This document shows positions 3,017 to 28,089 of a DNA stretch of 32,000 nt, one piece after another (positions within the stretch are counted from its first letter, which is position 1; the number at the start of each line of letters is the position of its first letter). The stretch covers positions 480,001 through 512,000 of the forward strand of contig NC_008698.1 in assembly GCF_000015225.1 (NCBI RefSeq), in the 5' to 3' direction. This DNA comes from Thermofilum pendens Hrk 5 (GTDB taxonomy: Archaea; Thermoproteota; Thermoprotei; Thermofilales; Thermofilaceae). The position numbers and the translations under genes were made by a program. The notes under the pieces were generated by a model. It saw only the letters and a program-made list of their open reading frames with translations. It did no database searches and was not told the origin of the DNA.

Positions 3017-3046
3017 GGAGGGGGCCGGGCGCCTTTTCCTGCTGGT
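3017..3046 (-). repeat. Cassette 3' trailer element, copy A (ACCAGCAGGAAAAGGCGCCCGGCCCCCTCC on the minus strand)
   Basis: Lies 10 nt after the stop of the 3057-4565 ORF. It matches 20757-20787, 28060-28089 and the first 20 nt of 16397-16416. Confidence 0.8.
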
Positions 3047-3056
3047 CTTACCTCTT

Positions 3057-4565
3057 TTATTCTTGTGCCCCAGCTGGTTTAATTCTTAGCAGTTCTTCAA
3101 CCAGTTTGCGCGCAACGGGCTTAGCCTGCGCCTTTGCAACTGCGAAGCGGTAGAGTGCCTCCCAGAGTGTTGCATCCTCCGCCGCGTGCTCAAACAGAGA
3201 ACTTTGAGGAATTTCGTAGTAGAGCATCTCGCGCGTCGTGTGCGCGCGTGACTTGACGCGTGACCTGACAACCTTCACAGTCCACCCCTCCTCTACTGCG
3301 CGCTGGTACCAGCCTTGAGGCGCACTGTCAACGGGTATACGGGCGTATATGTAGGCGTACTTGCCGCCAACGGCAACCATAACGAGGTTAAGCAACGCTC
3401 CTGCCACCGGCGCGTAGAGGCCGAGCTCCTGGTAAGACCCCACTTTCTGTCCGGGTTTCCTACCCCTCTTACCCGGCGCTCCGTAGGCCACGAACAAGAT
3501 ATGCCTAACCTTCGCGCAACGCGTAACCTTGCCCACAAATGCTACGTATTCGCTGGCCCGTTCGACAGCAACGCGCGCGTTAAAGACAGCGCTCTCCGTC
3601 GGCAAGTAGACGTGCTCATGTCCAACCCTGAAGTAGAGCCATCGAAGCCTTAGAAAGTATTCGAGCTCGCCGTCCCCCAGGAAAGCGGTCGCCAGCGCCA
3701 CCGAGTCGCCGTTGAGCTCCTTGCACTCCTCTACGAGCCGGCGGAACTCTGCACGTTTAACCTCGCCGATAAGCCCTGAAGCCCAGCCTAGCTCCTCCTC
3801 GTAGCCGTAGATACTCACTCCCCACTGAAGGCTCAGCCTGGTGCTACCGAGAATACCCGCCGTGACACCGAGCCTGACATCGTCGCTTGGAAAGGCCGCG
3901 AGCGTCGATGGCAACTGCCAAGCCTGGGTAGTGCCGAAGGAGACGTAAGGATATCCTTCATGCGGCGGAGTGACGTCTGTGAGTAGCCACCCTCGTTGCA
4001 GGCTCCTAAGAACATCACTCGGAGTATTCACGAGAACCCTGGGAAACTCTGACTCGGTCCAGAAGCCTTTCAACGGGATGCGCACGACCCAGCGCGCAGG
4101 CTTGCTCACGACGACGTACCAGTTCTCGCGCGGCACGTACACGCGCCAGTGCCTTCCGTGCCTCTCAGCTCTAAGACCGTCCTCGGTAGCGTCGACGATT
4201 GCTTGTAGCCTTCCTCTGAGCTCCGTCACCGCGCTTCCCTCTCTCGGCCTGTTGTCATCGCTTAGCAAGAGGTACTTCCTCGCGTCGCTGTCGATGAAGC
4301 GGTAAAACCTCGGGTAGACTTCGTCCGGCACTACGCTCAGCGCGTGCGCCGCAAACCTGGTAAAGTCCCAGTTAATTTCGGTCACAGCATCATGCAGGCC
4401 GCGGTAGTGTATCTCGCCCCTCTTCTTCTTACCCCTGGACCTCCTCTTATCCTCCGTCCTGGTGGTGTAGAGGCTTAAAGCCGCACGCCTCCAAACCTCC
4501 TCCCTAACAACCTTCTCGACCTCCTCCCCCGCCGCTCCATTTCCCCTCATGTACTCTTCACCCAT
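3057..4565 (-). CDS. Large cassette protein, copy A (502 aa), a divergent paralogue of 19337-20755 and 26636-28054; function unknown
   Basis: Long ORF with motifs collinear to copies B/C: MRGNGAAGE vs MRGDGAGEG, RHWRVYV vs RRWRLYV, LQRGWLLTDVT vs AQDGWILGDAS, GTTQAWQL vs GTAQTWQV, LSLQWGVSIYG vs VSIMWQVRVHG, ATAFLGDGE vs ATYYAADGK. It has the same leader and trailer DNA. Confidence 0.8.
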   Translation of the reverse strand: MGEEYMRGNGAAGEEVEKVVREEVWRRAALSLYTTRTEDKRRSRGKKKRGEIHYRGLHDAVTEINWDFTRFAAHALSVVPDEVYPRFYRFIDSDARKYLLLSDDNRPREGSAVTELRGRLQAIVDATEDGLRAERHGRHWRVYVPRENWYVVVSKPARWVVRIPLKGFWTESEFPRVLVNTPSDVLRSLQRGWLLTDVTPPHEGYPYVSFGTTQAWQLPSTLAAFPSDDVRLGVTAGILGSTRLSLQWGVSIYGYEEELGWASGLIGEVKRAEFRRLVEECKELNGDSVALATAFLGDGELEYFLRLRWLYFRVGHEHVYLPTESAVFNARVAVERASEYVAFVGKVTRCAKVRHILFVAYGAPGKRGRKPGQKVGSYQELGLYAPVAGALLNLVMVAVGGKYAYIYARIPVDSAPQGWYQRAVEEGWTVKVVRSRVKSRAHTTREMLYYEIPQSSLFEHAAEDATLWEALYRFAVAKAQAKPVARKLVEELLRIKPAGAQE

Positions 4566-4652
4566 ACTACCACCCCTCCTTAAATGGTGGAGGGGGCGCC
4601 CTGCGAGGGCGCGGCATCAGGGGTCAGCGTGGAGGGAGAGGCCGGGAAAGAG
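4566..4652 (-). promoter_or_regulatory. Conserved cassette leader, copy A (palindrome GCGCCC-TCGCA-GGGCGC, then CCACCATTTAAGGAGGGGTGGTAG directly before the ATG)
   Basis: About 84% identical by eye over about 88 nt to 19248-19336. The proximal about 50 nt is also shared with 26585-26635. Confidence 0.75.
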
Positions 4653-4664
4653 TGTTGACCGAGC

Positions 4665-4895
4665 ATGAGTGACCCGAGGGTTACCGTGCGAACGATAGGC
4701 ACGTTGTCGAGGCTACTGGCGAGCACTCTTAGGCGTGACGGGCTGTACGAGGCTAGGCTCGTCGAAGCATTAGACGCAGTAGAGGAGTTCCTAGCCTCCG
4801 TGAGAGGCGCGACCCCGCGCATCGAGGAGGACGAAAAGCTGGCAAGAGAGCTGGAGGAGGACATCGAGGGGCTGAGAGGGCTAGGGCTAGTATAA
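4665..4895 (+). CDS. Small cassette protein, copy A (76 aa, helical, acidic C-terminal half), divergent from the large ORF
   Basis: ORF track. It has a close homologue without a start codon at 18824-19040 (minus strand) and a distant one at 26394-26618. A T-rich tract follows the stop. Confidence 0.6.
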   Translation: MSDPRVTVRTIGTLSRLLASTLRRDGLYEARLVEALDAVEEFLASVRGATPRIEEDEKLARELEEDIEGLRGLGLV

Positions 4896-4970
4896 AAATC
4901 CTTCTTCTTTTTCCTCTTCTCGCGAGCGCAAGGTTTTTACGGAGAGCCATAGCTATTCGCGCGGACATGT

Positions 4971-6296: not shown

Positions 6297-7889
6297 CTAG
6301 AAAGAAGGTCTGATCTCCAGTGTGTAACCGTAGCGCCTAGCGATGCGTTCAAGCTTCCTTCGAGGTTTACCCGCAAGGTAGTTAAAACCGTCTACCGGGA
6401 CCTTGATCACAACGAGCGATTCGTTCTCGTCTATCACGAGCTCGTAGCCTCCGTCTCCGAGCATCTTGAAGAGAGCCTTCTCCAACGCGTTCTTCATCTT
6501 GTACCCCTCTATGCTCACCTTGCCTGTACCGCCCCGCTTAACGGGAACCACGAACGTCCTCTCGCCGAACACGTACAGCTCGTACTCAGGCTCTCCGGTC
6601 ATGAAATCCCTGACAACGACAACGGGTCTCGCCAGGTCCTCCTCCTTCAGCCCATGCGGTATCTTGACTGTAGTCTCCAAGGAGTATACCTTCTCAACCC
6701 TCCCGTGCTTCACGTAGATCACGGTGTCAATTATCGAAGGTATCATGCCGAGCTCCACTCTACCGATAAACCTCTGAACGGCGTCTATAGGCGAAGTCGC
6801 GTGGACAACTCCGACCATACCCACGCCGGCGAGGCGGAGGTCAGCGTAGAGCTCGAAGTCCTTCGTATCCCGCATCTCGTCGAAGAATGTGTAGTCAGGC
6901 CTGCTGAGTAGGAGCACGTCGTGTATCTCCTCGGAGGTAGCGTAGTTCCTAGAGTACTGCGTTATATCGGCGGGCAGGTGCATGTCCCTCGGAGACTCTA
7001 TGGTCTTAACGACTTTCCCCTTGCGGTAGTAGTACTCGGCGAGCGCCTGGGCGAACGTGGTCTTACCCATCCCCGGGGCACCCGCGATGAGTATACCCTC
7101 GGCCTGCTTCTCGAGGCGCTCTATGAGCTTCTTGGGCAAGTTGTAGTCCTCCAGGCGTAGCCGCGCAACAGGTCTAGTAGCAGTTATCTCGATGCCGTCC
7201 GAGAAGGGAGGCTTCGTTATGACTATCCTGTATAACCCTAGCTGCACTATGGTAACCCCCGTGCCCTCGTACTCTACGAACGCCGAGCTCCCAGAAGTCT
7301 TGACCATCTCGAATACTTGGCGCACGTAGTCCTCCATCTCCTCGCGCGTCAAAGGCTGGTCCCGTAGGCTAACGAAGGTCCACTGCCCAGGCACGCCCTT
7401 CTTCGCGTACGGCTTAGCTCCCTCCTTCAAGTGCACGCTCATAGTGTCGGGACCGAAAAGCTTGTCCAGGAAGAACTCGGCGCCTCCGCGCGGCGGGAGA
7501 AGCTCCACCTCCACGCCGAGCGCCCTCGCAACCCTAGCCGAAAGCTCGTCGCACGTTACCAGCACGCCGCCGTTCTCCACGGCAGTCAGCCTACAAACCA
7601 GGTCCGGGTTTAGGTCCCGCAAACCCCTCAGAGACACTGGGAGCTCATACACGTATTCAAGCTCCACTACTTCGGGCATCGAGTCCGCAACGTCTCTCAG
7701 CAGGTTAAGCTCCCTAACACCACTTACTCCAGCGCTTATCCCGCGGCGCGCCTGTTCCTCGAAGTAATTGAGCACATAGACAGGAATCAAGATACGCCCA
7801 GCTAACCTACCCTGCGCAACAGCCTCTCTGAGCGCGCCGCTCAGTATAGCAGACGTGTCAGGCACGTATACTTTTTCGTCGTGCTCCAT
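6297..7889 (-). CDS. PIN domain + PilT-like ATPase + C-terminal KH-like domain protein (COG1855-type archaeal ATPase)
   Basis: 530 aa with an N-terminal PIN-like region (VPDTSAIL...), Walker A GAPGMGKTTFAQALAEYY and Walker B-like YTFFDEMRD. Length and domain order fit the conserved archaeal PIN-ATPase-KH family. Confidence 0.85.
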   Translation of the reverse strand: MEHDEKVYVPDTSAILSGALREAVAQGRLAGRILIPVYVLNYFEEQARRGISAGVSGVRELNLLRDVADSMPEVVELEYVYELPVSLRGLRDLNPDLVCRLTAVENGGVLVTCDELSARVARALGVEVELLPPRGGAEFFLDKLFGPDTMSVHLKEGAKPYAKKGVPGQWTFVSLRDQPLTREEMEDYVRQVFEMVKTSGSSAFVEYEGTGVTIVQLGLYRIVITKPPFSDGIEITATRPVARLRLEDYNLPKKLIERLEKQAEGILIAGAPGMGKTTFAQALAEYYYRKGKVVKTIESPRDMHLPADITQYSRNYATSEEIHDVLLLSRPDYTFFDEMRDTKDFELYADLRLAGVGMVGVVHATSPIDAVQRFIGRVELGMIPSIIDTVIYVKHGRVEKVYSLETTVKIPHGLKEEDLARPVVVVRDFMTGEPEYELYVFGERTFVVPVKRGGTGKVSIEGYKMKNALEKALFKMLGDGGYELVIDENESLVVIKVPVDGFNYLAGKPRRKLERIARRYGYTLEIRPSF

Positions 7890-7960
7890 TACTTACTCGC
7901 GTGAAAGCGTCGTGCTAACCTTTTAAGCATTTCGATATAGTAAGAGTATTCTCGGAAACT

Positions 7961-7985
7961 CCAAGACCCCTCAATTTCTACTGCA
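7961..7985 (-). promoter_or_regulatory. ORB-like (origin recognition box) element 1
   Basis: The minus strand reads TGCAGTAGAAATTGAGGGGTCTTGG: a dyad-like TxCA-NN-GAAA followed by the G-string GGGGT. Confidence 0.65.
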
Positions 7986-8055
7986 ACACTTCTTCAAAAC
8001 CTAACTGTTTGATAGAACTCTTACTGTTTACGATCTCAAGTTTTCAATCCACTTC

Positions 8056-16350: not shown

Positions 16351-16396
16351 CGCGCAAGCCTAGTCGCGCGCGGAACTAGGACGATTAAAGCGGAAA

Positions 16397-16416
16397 ACCA
16401 GCAGGAAAAGGCGCCC
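16397..16416 (+). repeat. Solo copy of the cassette 3' trailer (ACCAGCAGGAAAAGGCGCCC)
   Basis: 20/20 identical to the minus-strand reading of 3027-3046, with no adjacent cassette ORF. Confidence 0.7.
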
Positions 16417-18767: not shown

Positions 18768-18823
18768 AAGCGCCCACGTTTACAAACCAGGGAAAAAGGA
18801 AGAAAGGAATAAAAAGGGGGTTT

Positions 18824-19040
18824 TTATGCCAGCCCTAGCCCTCTCAGCTCTTCGACGTCCTCCTCCAGCTCCCTTGCTAACTCCTCGTCTTCCTCGACTC
18901 TCGCCGGAGCGCTTCTCACGGAGGCTAGGAACTCCTCTATCGCGTCCAACGCCTCTACCAGCCTAGCCTCGTAGAGCCCGTCACCCTTAAGAGTGCTCGC
19001 CAAGAGCCTCGAGAGAGCGCCGATAGTCCTAACGATAACG
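18824..19040 (-). pseudogene. Small cassette protein, copy B: 5'-truncated, with no start codon
   Basis: The minus-strand translation ...RVIVRTIGALSRLLASTLKGDGLYEARLVEALDAIEEFLASVRSAPARVEEDEELARELEEDVEELRGLGLA* is about 80% identical to 4665-4895. The frame has no in-frame ATG/GTG/TTG upstream of the homologous region, and homology ends at the GCGCGCGCG tract near 19041-19049. Confidence 0.6.
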
Positions 19041-19247
19041 CGCGCGCGGGTTCTTTGACAACGACGGCGTTGAGGAGGTGTTTTTGTGGCTTTTGGACAA
19101 GTTGCCCAGCGTGAAACACTACACCTTCGAGTACAGCTTACCTCCGAACCTGCGCGCCTCTTTTGAGAAAATAGTGCACGAGATACTGCTCGCCTAAGTT
19201 AGAGTCCTAAACCCCCAGCCTGAAAAGTATCTTTTTTTGCCGCCCCC

Positions 19248-19336
19248 CTCTTTCCCCGGTCCCTCCCTCTACGCTGACCCCTGATCGCGCGCCCGAATAG
19301 GGCGCCCACCCCACCATTTAAGGAGGGGTGGTAGGT
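19248..19336 (+). promoter_or_regulatory. Conserved cassette leader, copy B
   Basis: CTCTTTCCCCGGTCCCTCCCTCTACGCTGACCCCTGATCGCGCGCCCGAATAGGGCGCCCACCCCACCATTTAAGGAGGGGTGGTAGGT followed by ATG. The palindrome GCGCCC-GAATA-GGGCGC is at 19289-19305. Confidence 0.75.
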
Positions 19337-20755
19337 ATGAATGAAGTAGTAATGAGGGGGGATGGAGCGGGGGAGGGGGTTGAAGAGTTCGACGAGTGGT
19401 TTATTCGCAGGAAGATCGAGGAGCTCCTGAGGAAGGCGCTGTTTCCGCCCAGCGGCTATAGGGGTCTAAAGGCTACGCACAGCAAGGTTGCACGGGAGCT
19501 AGCAGAAATAAAGGCCAACTATGTGCAATACGGCGAGGCCTACGTCGAGCACGTCGACAGGCTCAGGGAAGGCGAGGAGAAGGCCTACAGAGAGGCGGAG
19601 AAAGCGATGCAAGAAGCCTTAGAGCACGCAGACGAACTCGAAATCAAGAGAACAGGGAAGACGACGTGGAAGGCTAAGCTCCCAGGCAGGAGATGGAGGC
19701 TATACGTTTGCAGAACACCAACCGGGCACTGGCAGGTCGAGGTCGCCCTTCTCTTCAAGGTCGCCGAGCTCAGGCTATCCGATACATTAAGGCTTCCGCC
19801 TGAGCTACTCAGAGCGGCCCAGGATGGCTGGATTCTTGGCGATGCGTCGTACATCGCAAACAAGAAAGAAGTCAAGATGGGTACAGCGCAGACGTGGCAG
19901 GTTGCCTCCTTTCCCGGTTTCTGGCCGGGAAAGGAGGTAGTGATCTACGTTAGAAGCGTAGTGATCCACGAGTCTCACGTCAGCATAATGTGGCAAGTGA
20001 GAGTACACGGGGTTCGCGACGTGCCCCGATGGTGGAGGCTAAGGAAGGAGGAGAAGCGGAGGATGGCAGTCGCCGAGATTGAGGAGGCAAACAAGGGCAA
20101 TATAGATGAGCGAAGAGCCGTTCGGATCGCAACGTACTACGCCGCAGACGGAAAGTATCCAGGATCAAACTCGGCCCTCCATTATCTGGATTTCGCGGTT
20201 GGCCGAAGATCTCGCCGAGTTAGAACGGAGCAATCCGTCAGGGTTGCGAGGCTTCTCTACGAGAAAGTGCCGCAACTATTAGCATTCATGGTCGCGTCGG
20301 GTTGCAAGAAAGCAGAGTTCTTAGCGAGCCTGGCATCCGTGAAGCCGCGACACTACGCGCCTCGCTACCTGGAGGTGTGCGGTGTTAAAATGAACCTGCG
20401 GCTCGCAGGCCCTAAGAACCGCCGCTACCTTATGGCCCAAGTATACATCACGCGCAATAACGAGGAGATGCTTCGCGATTTCCCCGAGAGGGCGAGGCGC
20501 GAGGGTCTAGAAGTCAGAAGGGTGAAGGTGAGTAAGAGGTATTGGGGTTACCGTGCTGGCGAAAAATCGCTAATGAAGTATGCTGACCGATATCCGCACG
20601 TCTACGACACTTTGATCGAGTTTGTCCAAGAAGAACTTCAAGCAACGCCTCCCGACCACCCCGCCCGCCGAAGCATAGAGCGCCTCTTGGAACGCCTAAG
20701 GAAGGCGAAGGAGGAAGCGCTCAAAAAGCTGGGGCACCAAGACGCTAAAGCATGA
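19337..20755 (+). CDS. Large cassette protein, copy B (472 aa from ATG 19337); function unknown
   Basis: Roughly two-thirds identical by eye to copy C along its whole length. ATG 19337 aligns with the starts of copies A and C; the ORF-track GTG at 19328 lies inside the conserved leader. Confidence 0.85.
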   Translation: MNEVVMRGDGAGEGVEEFDEWFIRRKIEELLRKALFPPSGYRGLKATHSKVARELAEIKANYVQYGEAYVEHVDRLREGEEKAYREAEKAMQEALEHADELEIKRTGKTTWKAKLPGRRWRLYVCRTPTGHWQVEVALLFKVAELRLSDTLRLPPELLRAAQDGWILGDASYIANKKEVKMGTAQTWQVASFPGFWPGKEVVIYVRSVVIHESHVSIMWQVRVHGVRDVPRWWRLRKEEKRRMAVAEIEEANKGNIDERRAVRIATYYAADGKYPGSNSALHYLDFAVGRRSRRVRTEQSVRVARLLYEKVPQLLAFMVASGCKKAEFLASLASVKPRHYAPRYLEVCGVKMNLRLAGPKNRRYLMAQVYITRNNEEMLRDFPERARREGLEVRRVKVSKRYWGYRAGEKSLMKYADRYPHVYDTLIEFVQEELQATPPDHPARRSIERLLERLRKAKEEALKKLGHQDAKA

Positions 20756-20756
20756 A

Positions 20757-20787
20757 ACCAACAGGGAAAGGCGCCCGGCCCCCCTCC
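20757..20787 (+). repeat. Cassette 3' trailer element, copy B (ACCAACAGGGAAAGGCGCCCGGCCCCCCTCC)
   Basis: Starts 1 nt after the stop codon and matches copies A and C. Confidence 0.8.
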
Positions 20788-20825
20788 TCATTAAAGTACT
20801 CGTGAAGCTCGCGCGCTCGCGCCGG

Positions 20826-26331: not shown

Positions 26332-26393
26332 CTTGTACTCAGCGCGCGAACGGGAATAAAAAAGTGAGGTTTTTTACGCCAGCCCGGGCTAGG

Positions 26394-26618
26394 CTATTCT
26401 CTCAGCTTTTCAAGCGCCCTTACCGTCGCCAGGGCTACCTCGTCCTCGGGGTAGAAGACCTTGACCTCGTCCACGCGGAAGCGCTCCACGAAGGCCCAGA
26501 CGAATGCCGCGATGAGCTTCCCCAGGAACTCGGCGTCGCTGCTCGCCTCAAGCCTCGCCACACCCCTGGCTTTGAAGGTCGCGGTTGCGCGCCCGCAGAG
26601 GGCGCCCCTTTCCACCAT
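26394..26618 (-). CDS. Small cassette protein, copy C (divergent; start uncertain)
   Basis: It occupies the same divergent position as 4665-4895, with weak collinear similarity (ARLEASSDAEFLGK vs ARLVEALDAVEEFLAS; PEDE...LEKLRE vs EEDE...IEGLRG) and a similar 3' flank (GGCTGGCGTAAAAAAC vs GGCTGGCATAAAAAC). The ATG at 26618 lies inside the large gene's leader, so the true start may be internal (for example the GTG of VARLE). Confidence 0.35.
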   Translation of the reverse strand: MVERGALCGRATATFKARGVARLEASSDAEFLGKLIAAFVWAFVERFRVDEVKVFYPEDEVALATVRALEKLRE

Positions 26619-26635
26619 TTAAGGAGGGGTTAAGT
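26585..26635 (+). promoter_or_regulatory. Conserved cassette leader, copy C (proximal part only)
   Basis: Palindrome GCGCCC-GCAGA-GGGCGC at 26589-26605, then CCACCATTTAAGGAGGGG and ATG 26636. The distal leader seen in copies A and B is absent. Confidence 0.7.
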
Positions 26636-28054
26636 ATGGGTAGGGAAATGATGGGGTATGGGACTGTGGCAGGAGGGGTCGAAGAGTTCGACGAGGAGTT
26701 CGTCCGCGGGAAGCTTAAAGAGCTTCTAGAGAAAGCGTTGTTTCCGCGCGGCAACTATAGGGGGCTCAAAGCTACTCACGAGCAGGTTGCGCGGGAGCTA
26801 GCAGAAATAAAGGCCAACTATGCGCAATACGGCGAGGCCTACGTTGAATACGTTGGCAGGCTCGGGGAAGGCGAGGAGAAGGCGTTCAGAGAGGCGGAGA
26901 AAGCGATGAGGGAAGCCCTGAAGCGTGTAGACGAACTCAAGATCAAGAGAACAGGGAAGACACGGTGGAAGGCGAAGCTCTCCGGTGCGAAGTGGAGGCT
27001 CTACGTGCACTTGAAGCAAAGCGGATACTGGAGTGTTGAGGTTCGCTTGTACATCAGGGTCGCTAAGCTAAGGCTTCCCGATACCCTGAGGATTCCACCC
27101 GAGCTACTCAGAGTAGCGCAGGAGGGTTGGGTCCTGGGCGATGCTAGCTACGACGCAGACCGCGGAGAAGTTAAGATGAGTACTTCGCAGAGCTGGCAGG
27201 TTGCCTCCTTCCCTGGTTTCTGGCCGGAAAAGGATGTAACCATCTGCGTTAAAAGCGTAGTGATCAACGAGACAAGAGTCAGCGTTACGTGGTACGTGGT
27301 TGTTAAGGGTGTTCGCGATGCGCCTCGCTTGTGGAGCCTCCCCAAAGTGGTGAAACAGAGGATCATCTTGAAGGAGATAGGAGGGGCGAACGAAGGAAAA
27401 GTCGACATCGTCAGGGCGCTAAAGCTTGCACTGCTATACGCCGCTGATGGGGAGTATCCAGGGCCAAACTCGGCTAAACACGTACTGGAATTCGCAGTCG
27501 GCCGAAGATCTCGCCAAGTTAGAACTGGGGGCTCGGTCAGGATTGCGAGGCTTCTATACAAGGAGGTACCGCAACTCTTAGCATACATGGTTGCGTCGGG
27601 CTGCAAGAAAGCAGAGTTCTTAGCTAGCCTGGCATTCGTGGAGCCCCGCCCGTACCGCCTCTCGCTGCGGTACTTGGAAGTCGCCGGCGTACGGATGAAC
27701 CTGCAACTCGTAGGCAATAAGAACTACTACACTCTTGCGGCGCGAGTGTATATAACCGAGGATAACGAGGAGATGCTTCGCGATTTCCCTGAGAGAGCGA
27801 GGAAAGAGGGTCTTGTAGTTAAAAAGATGAAGATAGCCAAGAAATACTACTGCTACTACGCCGGTATGCGGGAGCTGACGGGGTACTGCGATAAACACCC
27901 GGAGGCCTACAACACCCTGATCGACTTTGTTCAAGAAGAGCTTGAAACAATGCCTCTAGACCACCCTGCCCGCCGAAGCGTAGAGCGTCTCTTGGAACGC
28001 CTAAGGAAGGCGCGAGAAAGAGCGCTTAAAAAGCTGGGGGCAAGGCAGGAATAG
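26636..28054 (+). CDS. Large cassette protein, copy C (472 aa from ATG 26636); function unknown
   Basis: Paralogue of 19337-20755. The ORF-track TTG at 26585 would translate the conserved leader, so ATG 26636 is preferred by alignment with copies A and B. Confidence 0.85.
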   Translation: MGREMMGYGTVAGGVEEFDEEFVRGKLKELLEKALFPRGNYRGLKATHEQVARELAEIKANYAQYGEAYVEYVGRLGEGEEKAFREAEKAMREALKRVDELKIKRTGKTRWKAKLSGAKWRLYVHLKQSGYWSVEVRLYIRVAKLRLPDTLRIPPELLRVAQEGWVLGDASYDADRGEVKMSTSQSWQVASFPGFWPEKDVTICVKSVVINETRVSVTWYVVVKGVRDAPRLWSLPKVVKQRIILKEIGGANEGKVDIVRALKLALLYAADGEYPGPNSAKHVLEFAVGRRSRQVRTGGSVRIARLLYKEVPQLLAYMVASGCKKAEFLASLAFVEPRPYRLSLRYLEVAGVRMNLQLVGNKNYYTLAARVYITEDNEEMLRDFPERARKEGLVVKKMKIAKKYYCYYAGMRELTGYCDKHPEAYNTLIDFVQEELETMPLDHPARRSVERLLERLRKARERALKKLGARQE

Positions 28055-28059
28055 GGTAA

Positions 28060-28089
28060 ACCACCAGGGAAAGGCGCCCGGCCCCCTCC
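28060..28089 (+). repeat. Cassette 3' trailer element, copy C (ACCACCAGGGAAAGGCGCCCGGCCCCCTCC)
   Basis: Starts 5 nt after the stop codon and matches copies A and B. Confidence 0.8.

Follow-up and report, generated by a model that had tools for sequence, protein, structure and literature searches.

Three units of a two-gene cassette

We analysed a window of 32,000 nucleotides (nt) from the chromosome of Thermofilum pendens Hrk 5 (NC_008698.1, positions 480,001 to 512,000), which contains three units (A, B and C) of a two-gene cassette that we interpret as a candidate selfish element. Each unit consists of a T-rich tail, a small open reading frame (ORF), a leader, a large ORF divergent from the small one, and a trailer. 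All three were found where an earlier note, made from the sequence alone, had placed them, and the features are given as positions in the window (Table 1). The central description in that note, a multi-copy mosaic cassette with conserved non-coding ends, proved to be genuine. The leader string CCACCATTTAAGGAGG was present in three exact copies against 0.15 expected at up to three mismatches, the palindrome GCGCCC-N5-GGGCGC occurred three times against 0.27, and the 22-nt trailer consensus occurred four times against 0, with the expected counts taken from shuffled sequence.

Protein comparisons supported the mosaic pattern. The large ORFs of B and C were 67% identical at the amino acid (aa) level in BLASTP, in line with the two-thirds estimated before, whereas those of A and B were indeed only remotely similar (25% identity, E of 3e-19). 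The small ORFs of A and B were 83% identical in BLASTP and 81% identical over 227 nt of DNA, and the small ORF of C matched them only marginally (E of 0.03). A and B thus have the small ORF, the leader and the trailer in common but not the large ORF, whereas B and C have the large ORF in common but not the small one. The mosaicism is real, as three further paralogs (P0006, P0007 and P0008) switch subfamily: their first ~330 residues are B-type (50-88% identity) and the remainder A-type (70-90%). B and C are direct repeats with a spacing of 7299-7305 nt, and A is inverted.

The ratio of nonsynonymous to synonymous substitution rates (dN/dS) was 0.31 for the large ORFs of B and C and 0.18 for the small ORFs of A and B, indicating that both genes encode working proteins. 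Synonymous differences amounted to ~0.49 per site. The leader was nevertheless 86% identical and the trailer 93-97% identical, indicating that these parts are constrained or homogenised.

The five-part layout held in outline, and some details had to be corrected. In unit B, the small ORF lacks its first codons, and ~207 nt of unrelated DNA precede the leader. In unit C, the small ORF starts within the leader, and its DNA can be aligned to A and B only at the 3' end and the terminator. The count of three units stands, and the window additionally holds a fourth, solo trailer. The ~25 nt located 5' of this trailer resemble the decayed 3' end of an A-type ORF, and the trailer looks like the footprint of a lost cassette.

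Table 1. Cassette features in the 32,000-nt window. HP1, HP2 and P1 are the hairpins and the long stem of the leader; E values refer to the leader covariance model and z values to the 150-nt fold.
Feature	Position	Strand	Remarks
Unit A trailer	3017-3056	-	AGACCAGCAGGAAAAGGCGCCCGGCCCCCTCC; directly 3' of the stop codon; 1 mismatch to the 22-nt consensus; inverted-repeat pairs
Unit A large ORF	3057-4565	-	502 aa; P0009; A-type subfamily; LAGLIDADG-like (predicted)
Unit A structured leader	4506-4655	-	P1 encloses HP1 and HP2; overlaps both candidate start codons
Unit A HP1 (palindrome)	4596-4612	-	
Unit A HP2	within 4506-4655	-	Arms CCCCUCC/GGAGGGG
Unit A leader, covariance-model match	4562-4616	-	E 1.3e-6; z -3.0
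Unit A small ORF	4665-4895	+	76 aa; P0088; acidic; no recognisable domain
Unit A T-rich tail	4896-4925	+	3' of small ORF; terminator-like (A5-N-T5, then T run)
Solo trailer remnant	16395-16416	+	Intergenic region between SpoU-methylase and L10e; 0 mismatches to the 22-nt consensus
Unit B T-rich tail	18781-18823	-	3' of small ORF
Unit B small ORF, N-terminally truncated	18824-19044	-	Annotated as 59 or 70 aa (P0099, P0090); homology to A stops at 19044
Unit B unrelated DNA between small ORF and leader	19045-19251	+	~207 nt
C-terminal ORF fragment in unit B unrelated DNA	19048-19197	+	49 codons (FFDNDGVEEVFLWLLDKLPSVKHYTFEYSLPPNLRASFEKIVHEILLA); no Pfam or family match
Unit B structured leader	19245-19394	+	P1 stem; HP1 at 19289-19305; HP2 arms CCACCCC/GGGGUGG
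Unit B leader, covariance-model match	19285-19342	+	E 1e-6; z -3.7
Unit B large ORF	19337-20755	+	472 aa; P0001; B-type subfamily; protein used for structure modelling
Unit B trailer	20755-20788	+	Repeat matches; 22-nt consensus
Unit C T-rich tail	26350-26393	-	Terminator alignable with A and B
Unit C small ORF	26394-26618	-	74 aa; P0103; highly divergent or degenerate; start inside leader; no other paralog of its type
Unit C leader core	26585-26667	+	HP1 (26589-26605) and HP2; 5' arm of P1 largely lost; E 2.6e-5; z -1.1
Unit C large ORF	26636-28054	+	472 aa; P0004; B-type
Unit C trailer	28058-28089	+	Repeat matches; 22-nt consensus

The large protein and the folded leader

The large protein of unit B was modelled with AlphaFold2 from an alignment of 20 paralogs, with a predicted local distance difference test score (pLDDT) of 86.5, and its core (residues 148-420) was modelled separately (pLDDT of 85.8). 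The model showed a helical hairpin (N-terminal coiled coil, residues 20-96), a four-stranded sheet (102-146), two α-β-β-α-β-β-α units with their first helices at 155-167 and 258-271, and a C-terminal part that was α/β and helical. In both models, DSSP assigned helix 155-167, strands 171-174 and 178-183, helix 186-195, strands 200-211 and 214-224, and helix 237-252 to domain 1, and helix 258-271, strands 284-288 and 291-295, helix 297-332, strands 344-357 and 364-371, and helix 376-388 to domain 2. This duplicated topology is that of the LAGLIDADG superfamily. As in this superfamily, two LAGLIDADG-type motifs lay ~100 residues apart, each at a helix end and with a conserved acidic residue in motif position 8. 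Motif 1 is Q-x-G-W-x-x-x-D (G164, W165, D169), which reads QDGWILGDA in T. pendens and LQLGWRASDE in relatives. Motif 2 (D271, G272) reads ATYYAADGK (A-T-Y-Y-A-A-D-G) in T. pendens and LLTWWLGDG in relatives. Residues G164, W165, D169, T183, Q188, D271, G272 and K325 were invariant over 31 sequences and again over 64 sequences.

When the core model was searched against the Protein Data Bank (PDB) with Foldseek, ranks 1 to 34 were all LAGLIDADG-fold proteins. The best hits were I-Tsp061I (2.3e-4, probability 1.00) and bI3 maturase (2.5e-4); the I-OnuI family, WhiA and PI-SceI came next. The full-length model retrieved almost only LAGLIDADG enzymes, with weak scores (best 5.7e-3), and the search in BFVD returned I-SceI-like, DOD-type and intein-borne endonucleases (E of 1.2e-4, probability 1.0). 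These models make it very probable that the large protein adopts a very divergent double-domain LAGLIDADG fold. WhiA and pure maturases have usually lost the motif aspartates. Both are retained in the large protein, which argues for continued DNA cleavage as its predicted activity.

Neither cassette protein matched Pfam, PADLOC or PHROGs, the large protein also had no match in NCBIfam, and no transposase family was found. The earlier claim that there is no transposase, integrase or defence signature is therefore correct at the sequence level, but the predicted fold and the two invariant motifs place the large protein with the LAGLIDADG homing endonucleases. The claim of novelty has to be narrowed likewise. 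By its predicted fold the protein belongs to a known superfamily, within which it appears to form an undescribed family; no description of it was found in literature searches.

The palindrome reported in the leader is present but is merely the first hairpin (HP1) of a larger folded element. This conserved element of ~150 nt has a long stem P1 (20-45 bp), which encloses HP1 and a 7-bp hairpin (HP2) directly after it. The arms of HP1 are invariant (GCGCCC/GGGCGC). The arms of HP2 vary among clades yet stay complementary, being CCCCGGA/UCCGGGG in the main clade of the metagenomic relatives, CCCGGGC/GCCCGGG in the group of locus L036 and CCCUGGG/CCCAGGG in L048, besides the arms of units A and B. 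The sequence GCGCCC-N5-GGGCGC was found upstream of 17 of the 74 family ORFs, and these account for 17 of its 21 occurrences in 478 kb. In two loci on one 170-kb contig (L041 and L053), the ORFs were 68.5% identical and a 32-nt upstream block was 97% identical, with the same palindrome as in T. pendens. The leader core was conserved even in distant metagenomic relatives.

In an alignment of 16 metagenomic leaders, 97.1% of the cells at paired positions were paired, compared to 55% or less when the 3' partners were slid. The covariation score was 0.144 compared to 0.036 in shuffles, and none of 500 shuffles reached it. A covariance model was built from these 16 sequences only, with no T. pendens sequence, and its top three matches in the window were the T. 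pendens leaders (Table 1), the next match having an E value of 0.17. In the metagenomic loci, all 23 matches were on the sense strand, and 22 of them lay directly 5' of a family ORF, the exception being a second match in L050; seven matches were outside the training set. RNAalifold with 12 sequences kept 31 pairs, 11 of which showed compensatory changes. The z values of the 150-nt fold, given for the window in Table 1, were -4.7 for L036, -6.8 for L035 and -8.9 for L048. Folds of 60-110 nt were not significant, and the signal appeared only with the long stem included. Furthermore, the sense fold was better than the antisense fold in 20 of 24 elements, which are mutually related and do not amount to 24 independent trials, by a mean of 6 kcal/mol, and 106 of 870 pairs were G-U. 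For sequences related in this way, the asymmetry and the G-U pairs suggest that selection acts on the transcript and not on duplex DNA.

In T. pendens, HP2 has the Shine-Dalgarno-like sequence GGAGGGG as its 3' arm, and the junction contains the first ATG. The 3' arm of P1 is made up of the second ATG together with the ~10 codons that follow it (MRGNGAAGEE). The conserved M..RG.G start of the large ORF noted before is thus encoded by the 3' arm of the long stem, which explains why the N-terminus is conserved but disordered (pLDDT below 50 at residues 1-14).

The leader had no Rfam 15 match at the gathering score in the window, and a permissive search gave only chance hairpin-like matches. The 18-nt leader string gave only five chance matches, in unrelated organisms, in a collection of genome contigs without T. 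pendens. A 16-mer had 19 matches in viral contigs, which were judged to be chance, and the strict leader pattern had none in metagenome contigs.

Copies, relatives and genomic surroundings

The large ORFs of the window were 100% identical to T. pendens proteins. In word-indexed protein searches, 8 large paralogs were of the B-type and 12 of the A-type, and all belonged to T. pendens. A third T. pendens subtype (P0021) emerged from an exhaustive profile search, giving 21 large paralogs (P0001-P0021). The small ORF has ~20 T. pendens paralogs, which are 75-90% identical to one another, and one on a 528-bp ENA contig. No homolog of it was found outside T. pendens-like sequences, including the fetched metagenomic loci; the small gene and the trailer are specific to T. 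pendens. The conserved ends are not confined to the three units of the window, since P0013 and P0014 have over-extended annotations that translate this leader in frame, and one of these reads 'GAPPPPFKERLSM', which corresponds to GGCGCCCCCCCTCCACCATTTAAGGAG.

We judged the pairing of the two genes by GenBank/MAG (metagenome-assembled genome) protein accession numbers, which run in gene order. Six of the 11 looked-up small ORFs adjoined one of the 12 looked-up large ORFs, namely those of units A, B and C and the pairs P0012/P0091, P0010/P0092 and P0005/P0110. The other five small ORFs may pair with the nine large paralogs outside the look-up. With the six adjacent pairs counted once, the 11 small-ORF and 12 large-ORF accessions represent 17 distinct loci, 10 of which fall within ABL77852-ABL77971, a run of ~120 consecutive genes. 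All 17 lie between ABL77670 and ABL78618, a regional distribution and not a random one.

The units occupy short gaps between housekeeping genes, and the flanking genes are not co-duplicated with them. The three insertion points are the region upstream of crenactin, RNA methyltransferase/ArsR-like and Nep1/Rpr2. The neighbours include crenactin, Alba, an RNA methyltransferase, an ArsR-like protein, a THUMP methyltransferase, a pelota/eRF1-like protein, Nep1, the RNase P Rpr2 subunit, L10e and eIF2-gamma. Three known types of element were considered and rejected. An insertion sequence or DDE transposon was discarded on the lack of a transposase family, of unit ends that are mutual inverted repeats and of duplication in the flanks. 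A tRNA-targeting integrative element was discarded because no tRNA gene lies in the window and the trailer does not resemble a tRNA. A type II toxin-antitoxin module was discarded because the genes are divergent and neither protein had a match in Pfam, PADLOC or PHROGs.

The trailer was also considered as a degenerate leader, which was rejected as it gave no covariance-model match and had no significant fold of its own. Its last 17 nt (GGCGCCCGGCCCCCTCC) resemble the HP1 3' arm plus the HP2 5' arm (GGCGCCCCCTCC) in direct orientation (e.g., 3017-3036 and 4575-4601), and they complement the Shine-Dalgarno-like GGAGGGG as well. On the minus strand at 26352-26364, the sequence of the unit C T-rich tail is CTTTTTTATTCCC. 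The start codon of Nep1 (26331) follows 24-32 nt downstream of the TTTTTTATT of this tail on the same strand, and judging from this sequence the cassette end may supply the TATA box of its essential neighbour Nep1.

The exhaustive search yielded 44 representatives, from Pyrobaculum, Vulcanisaeta and Infirmifilum MAGs and from hot-spring metagenomes. A pattern scan found at least 444 loci in JGI metagenomes, and 80 of these were fetched for study. Some metagenomic contigs carried two or three family copies, and several copies were frameshifted. Viral contigs held no relatives detectable by protein patterns, and a plasmid collection gave no tblastn match. Short upstream ORFs that recur in the metagenomic relatives were considered as partner genes and rejected as translations of conserved non-coding DNA. 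One metagenomic member matched the GIY-YIG catalytic domain (E of 6e-4) in a per-member Pfam scan, which may stem from an over-extended or fused ORF.

Some of the metagenomic loci had distinctive surroundings. In at least 6 of 60 scanned loci (L089, L094/L097, L045, L040, L036), tRNA genes lay ~30-120 nt from the 3' end of the family ORF, far above the tRNA density expected for such genomes; in L036, the tRNA gene overlaps the annotated end of the ORF. In addition, direct repeats of 23-24 nt (CTGGCGGGCCCGGTGGGATTCG) were observed at 4897-4920 and 7337-7360 of L084 and at 523-545 and 2760-2782 of L064. When reverse-complemented, these repeats resemble a tRNA 3' end. They enclose ~2.3-2.4 kb holding a family ORF, an att-like duplication with no integrase inside. 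In L035, a CRISPR array of 8 repeats (2-569; sub-threshold match to Rfam CRISPR-DR27) ends ~900 nt upstream of the folded leader.

Interpretation and comparison with known systems

We favour, with moderate confidence, the explanation that the units represent copies of a selfish, free-standing cassette built on a LAGLIDADG-type gene, with a folded leader for translational control. The core would be a gene of ~1.45 kb for a LAGLIDADG-fold protein with both motif aspartates, an N-terminal coiled coil and small β sheet, and a C-terminal module that is exchangeable between copies. Folded in the mRNA, the leader would hold down the translation of a potentially harmful nuclease, and this brake could work via self-regulation or via the silencing of read-through transcripts. 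The T. pendens lineage would have added the divergently transcribed acidic protein of 76 aa and a 32-nt trailer marking the 3' edge. Since the small protein is nearly identical between copies, it would have to act on a feature that they share, such as the leader, the conserved catalytic core or a host factor. The cassette would have multiplied to ~21 copies in intergenic gaps between housekeeping genes, presumably by break and repair. The conserved leader and trailer could act as homology arms, through which gene conversion would swap ORF segments among the copies. Insertion between housekeeping genes, the solo trailer, the frameshifted and multiple copies in relatives and the spread over at least 444 loci are traits of a selfish element.

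The leader may be more than such a brake and serve as an RNA or DNA partner site of the large protein. The protein would then recognise the invariant GCGCCC/GGGCGC hairpin, or the duplex palindrome beside every copy, and thereby trigger the exchange of ORF segments among the ~20 loci via the leader and trailer arms. Such self-targeted cassette shuffling would diversify DNA-recognition specificities. HO endonuclease, which is derived from LAGLIDADG enzymes, drives mating-type switching and is loosely comparable. We consider this a speculative and improbable extension of the selfish-cassette explanation.

Several observations weigh against the selfish LAGLIDADG-type cassette. The TM-scores in Foldseek were low (0.2-0.39) with high root mean square deviations, indicating that the global two-domain arrangement of the model does not superimpose on known enzymes, although the fold string agrees locally. 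Among the 20 T. pendens members, none reached the Pfam models LAGLIDADG_1, _2 or _3; only 4 of the 64 family members had sub-threshold matches to LAGLIDADG_3 (best E of 0.01), and profile searches against PDB sequences returned only coiled-coil or designed-protein noise. The leader may not be part of the transcript, the sequences behind its strand asymmetry are mutually related, and the concordant changes in its palindrome arms could reflect a co-evolving dimeric DNA-binding protein. The unit edges showed no target-site duplication or terminal inverted repeats. The GC content and its third-codon-position value (GC3) were equal to those of the host, which indicates that the copies are old residents. 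Finally, the purifying selection on ~20 diverged copies also fits a domesticated function.

Some of these points converge on the main rival, which we nonetheless consider rather unlikely, namely that the family has been domesticated as sequence-specific DNA- or RNA-binding regulators, like WhiA or intron maturases. The proteins would no longer move or cut, the copies would stem from ordinary duplication, the leader would be a shared regulatory region and the small protein a co-regulator. Purifying selection, host-like composition and the absence of target-site duplications and inverted termini are all consistent with this, as is the presence of WhiA and bI3 maturase among the fold matches, and the leader hairpins could be the proteins' own binding site. 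However, both motif aspartates are invariant in 64 sequences, and the copies stand alone, dispersed over unrelated gaps between housekeeping genes. The solo trailer, the frameshifted relatives and those beside tRNA genes, and the species-specific expansion with no close relatives elsewhere also argue against domestication.

A toxin-immunity or defence-like module has less in its favour, and we regard it as improbable. The large protein would be a nuclease toxin, the small acidic protein an inhibitor or DNA mimic, and the leader a limit on toxin translation, with the module persisting by addiction. The very acidic small partner is almost always adjacent to the large gene, and both genes are under purifying selection. 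Toxin mRNAs bury their ribosome-binding site and start codon in structure, and the arrangement predicted for the leader is analogous. The genes are, however, divergent and not co-transcribed, and Pfam, PADLOC and PHROGs recognised neither protein. The small protein is 80-90% identical across copies while the large one falls to 25%, a discrepancy that speaks against neutralisation specific to each pair. The small gene is missing from distant relatives, which possess the large gene and the leader, and in unit B an intact large gene stands beside a truncated small one. The module explanation is weakened by this lack of co-variation, by the absence of the small gene from relatives and by its truncation.

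The note had guessed at a paREP-type family, and the cassette could accordingly be a member of the Pyrobaculum PaREP2b repeat family, already named and nothing new. One paralog (P0002) does bear the label 'PaREP2b' in UniProt, and PaREP2b elements have been described as putative transposons tied to genome differences in Pyrobaculum (PMC3558965). Like them, the cassette forms a multi-copy family specific to this hyperthermophilic archaeal group, and frameshifted copies occur among its relatives. However, none of the 20 T. pendens members matched the Pfam model PF07775 (PaRep2b) even at an E value of 10, and T. pendens membership was rejected on this test. Three distant relatives had sub-threshold matches of 16-18 bits, the best being 17.6 against a cut-off of 20.4. 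These always covered profile positions ~109-170 (~60 of 512) and lay in the C-terminal module of the relatives, which is exchangeable and not part of the core. Judged from these sequences, the two families may share one small C-terminal module, and outright membership is very unlikely. Beside the family copy in L084, a 197-aa ORF (7453-8046, minus strand) matched the family profile weakly (E of 3.7e-7) and, by eye, seems to consist of two copies of this module alone; it may be a link to the PaREP2 families.

An ordinary segmental duplication of a hypothetical gene pair, flanked simply by a promoter and a terminator, would fit the direct repeats B and C 7.3 kb apart and the crowding of 10 of 17 loci within ~120 genes, but it is disfavoured and highly improbable, as the flanking genes were not duplicated along, the parts of one unit have discordant histories and the leader structure is kept across proteins of 20-30% identity and in other genera.

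The assignment offers a fold and a testable activity for many hypothetical proteins that no family library covers, 21 in T. pendens and those of at least 444 hot-spring metagenomic loci. Free-standing LAGLIDADG-type genes that multiply in an archaeal chromosome, rather than in introns or inteins, would be unusual. The structured leader of ~150 nt is a new conserved element that can be searched for by covariance model. If the proteins cut DNA, one organism would hold ~20 naturally diversified, hyperthermostable meganuclease scaffolds. Moreover, the copies bracket essential genes and are likely hot spots for inversion, deletion and gene conversion.

The closest known systems are the LAGLIDADG homing endonucleases, such as the archaeal intron-encoded I-Tsp061I and I-DmoI and the monomeric I-OnuI and I-SceI, which were the best and almost sole fold matches of the large protein. 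The large protein is predicted to have the same two pseudo-symmetric domains, each opened by a motif helix, with invariant aspartates ~100 residues apart. It differs in lacking a sequence-model match, in its low TM-scores and in its length of ~470-500 aa, to which an additional coiled coil and β sheet at the N-terminus and an additional C-terminal module contribute. Unlike these enzymes, the cassette lies outside introns and inteins and has ~21 diverged copies in one chromosome. WhiA and the LAGLIDADG maturases (bI3, I-AniI) are non-cutting or RNA-binding derivatives among the fold matches, and if the large protein bound the folded RNA of its own leader, it would be maturase-like. In contrast to them, the large protein keeps both motif aspartates and has no intron context and no WhiA-type helix-turn-helix tail.

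For the proposed control by the leader, parallels exist in the fold-back inhibition of IS10/IS50-type elements, in toxin mRNAs with a buried ribosome-binding site and in the autorepression of I-TevI at its own operator. As in these, the start-codon region is paired with a long inverted repeat located at the 5' edge of the gene, and a hairpin holds a Shine-Dalgarno-like sequence. The leader differs in its long stem with two stacked hairpins, one of them an invariant 6-bp stem, and in being conserved across genera with no Rfam match and no transposase. As a whole, the cassette is also comparable to phage homing endonuclease genes of the free-standing kind, which occupy intergenic gaps flanked by conserved genes. 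Both are inserted between housekeeping genes and show mosaic exchange of modules, and the conserved flanks of the cassette could likewise serve as repair homology. Unlike the phage genes, the cassette resides in an archaeal chromosome, has many paralogs and combines its large gene with a partner gene and a folded leader.

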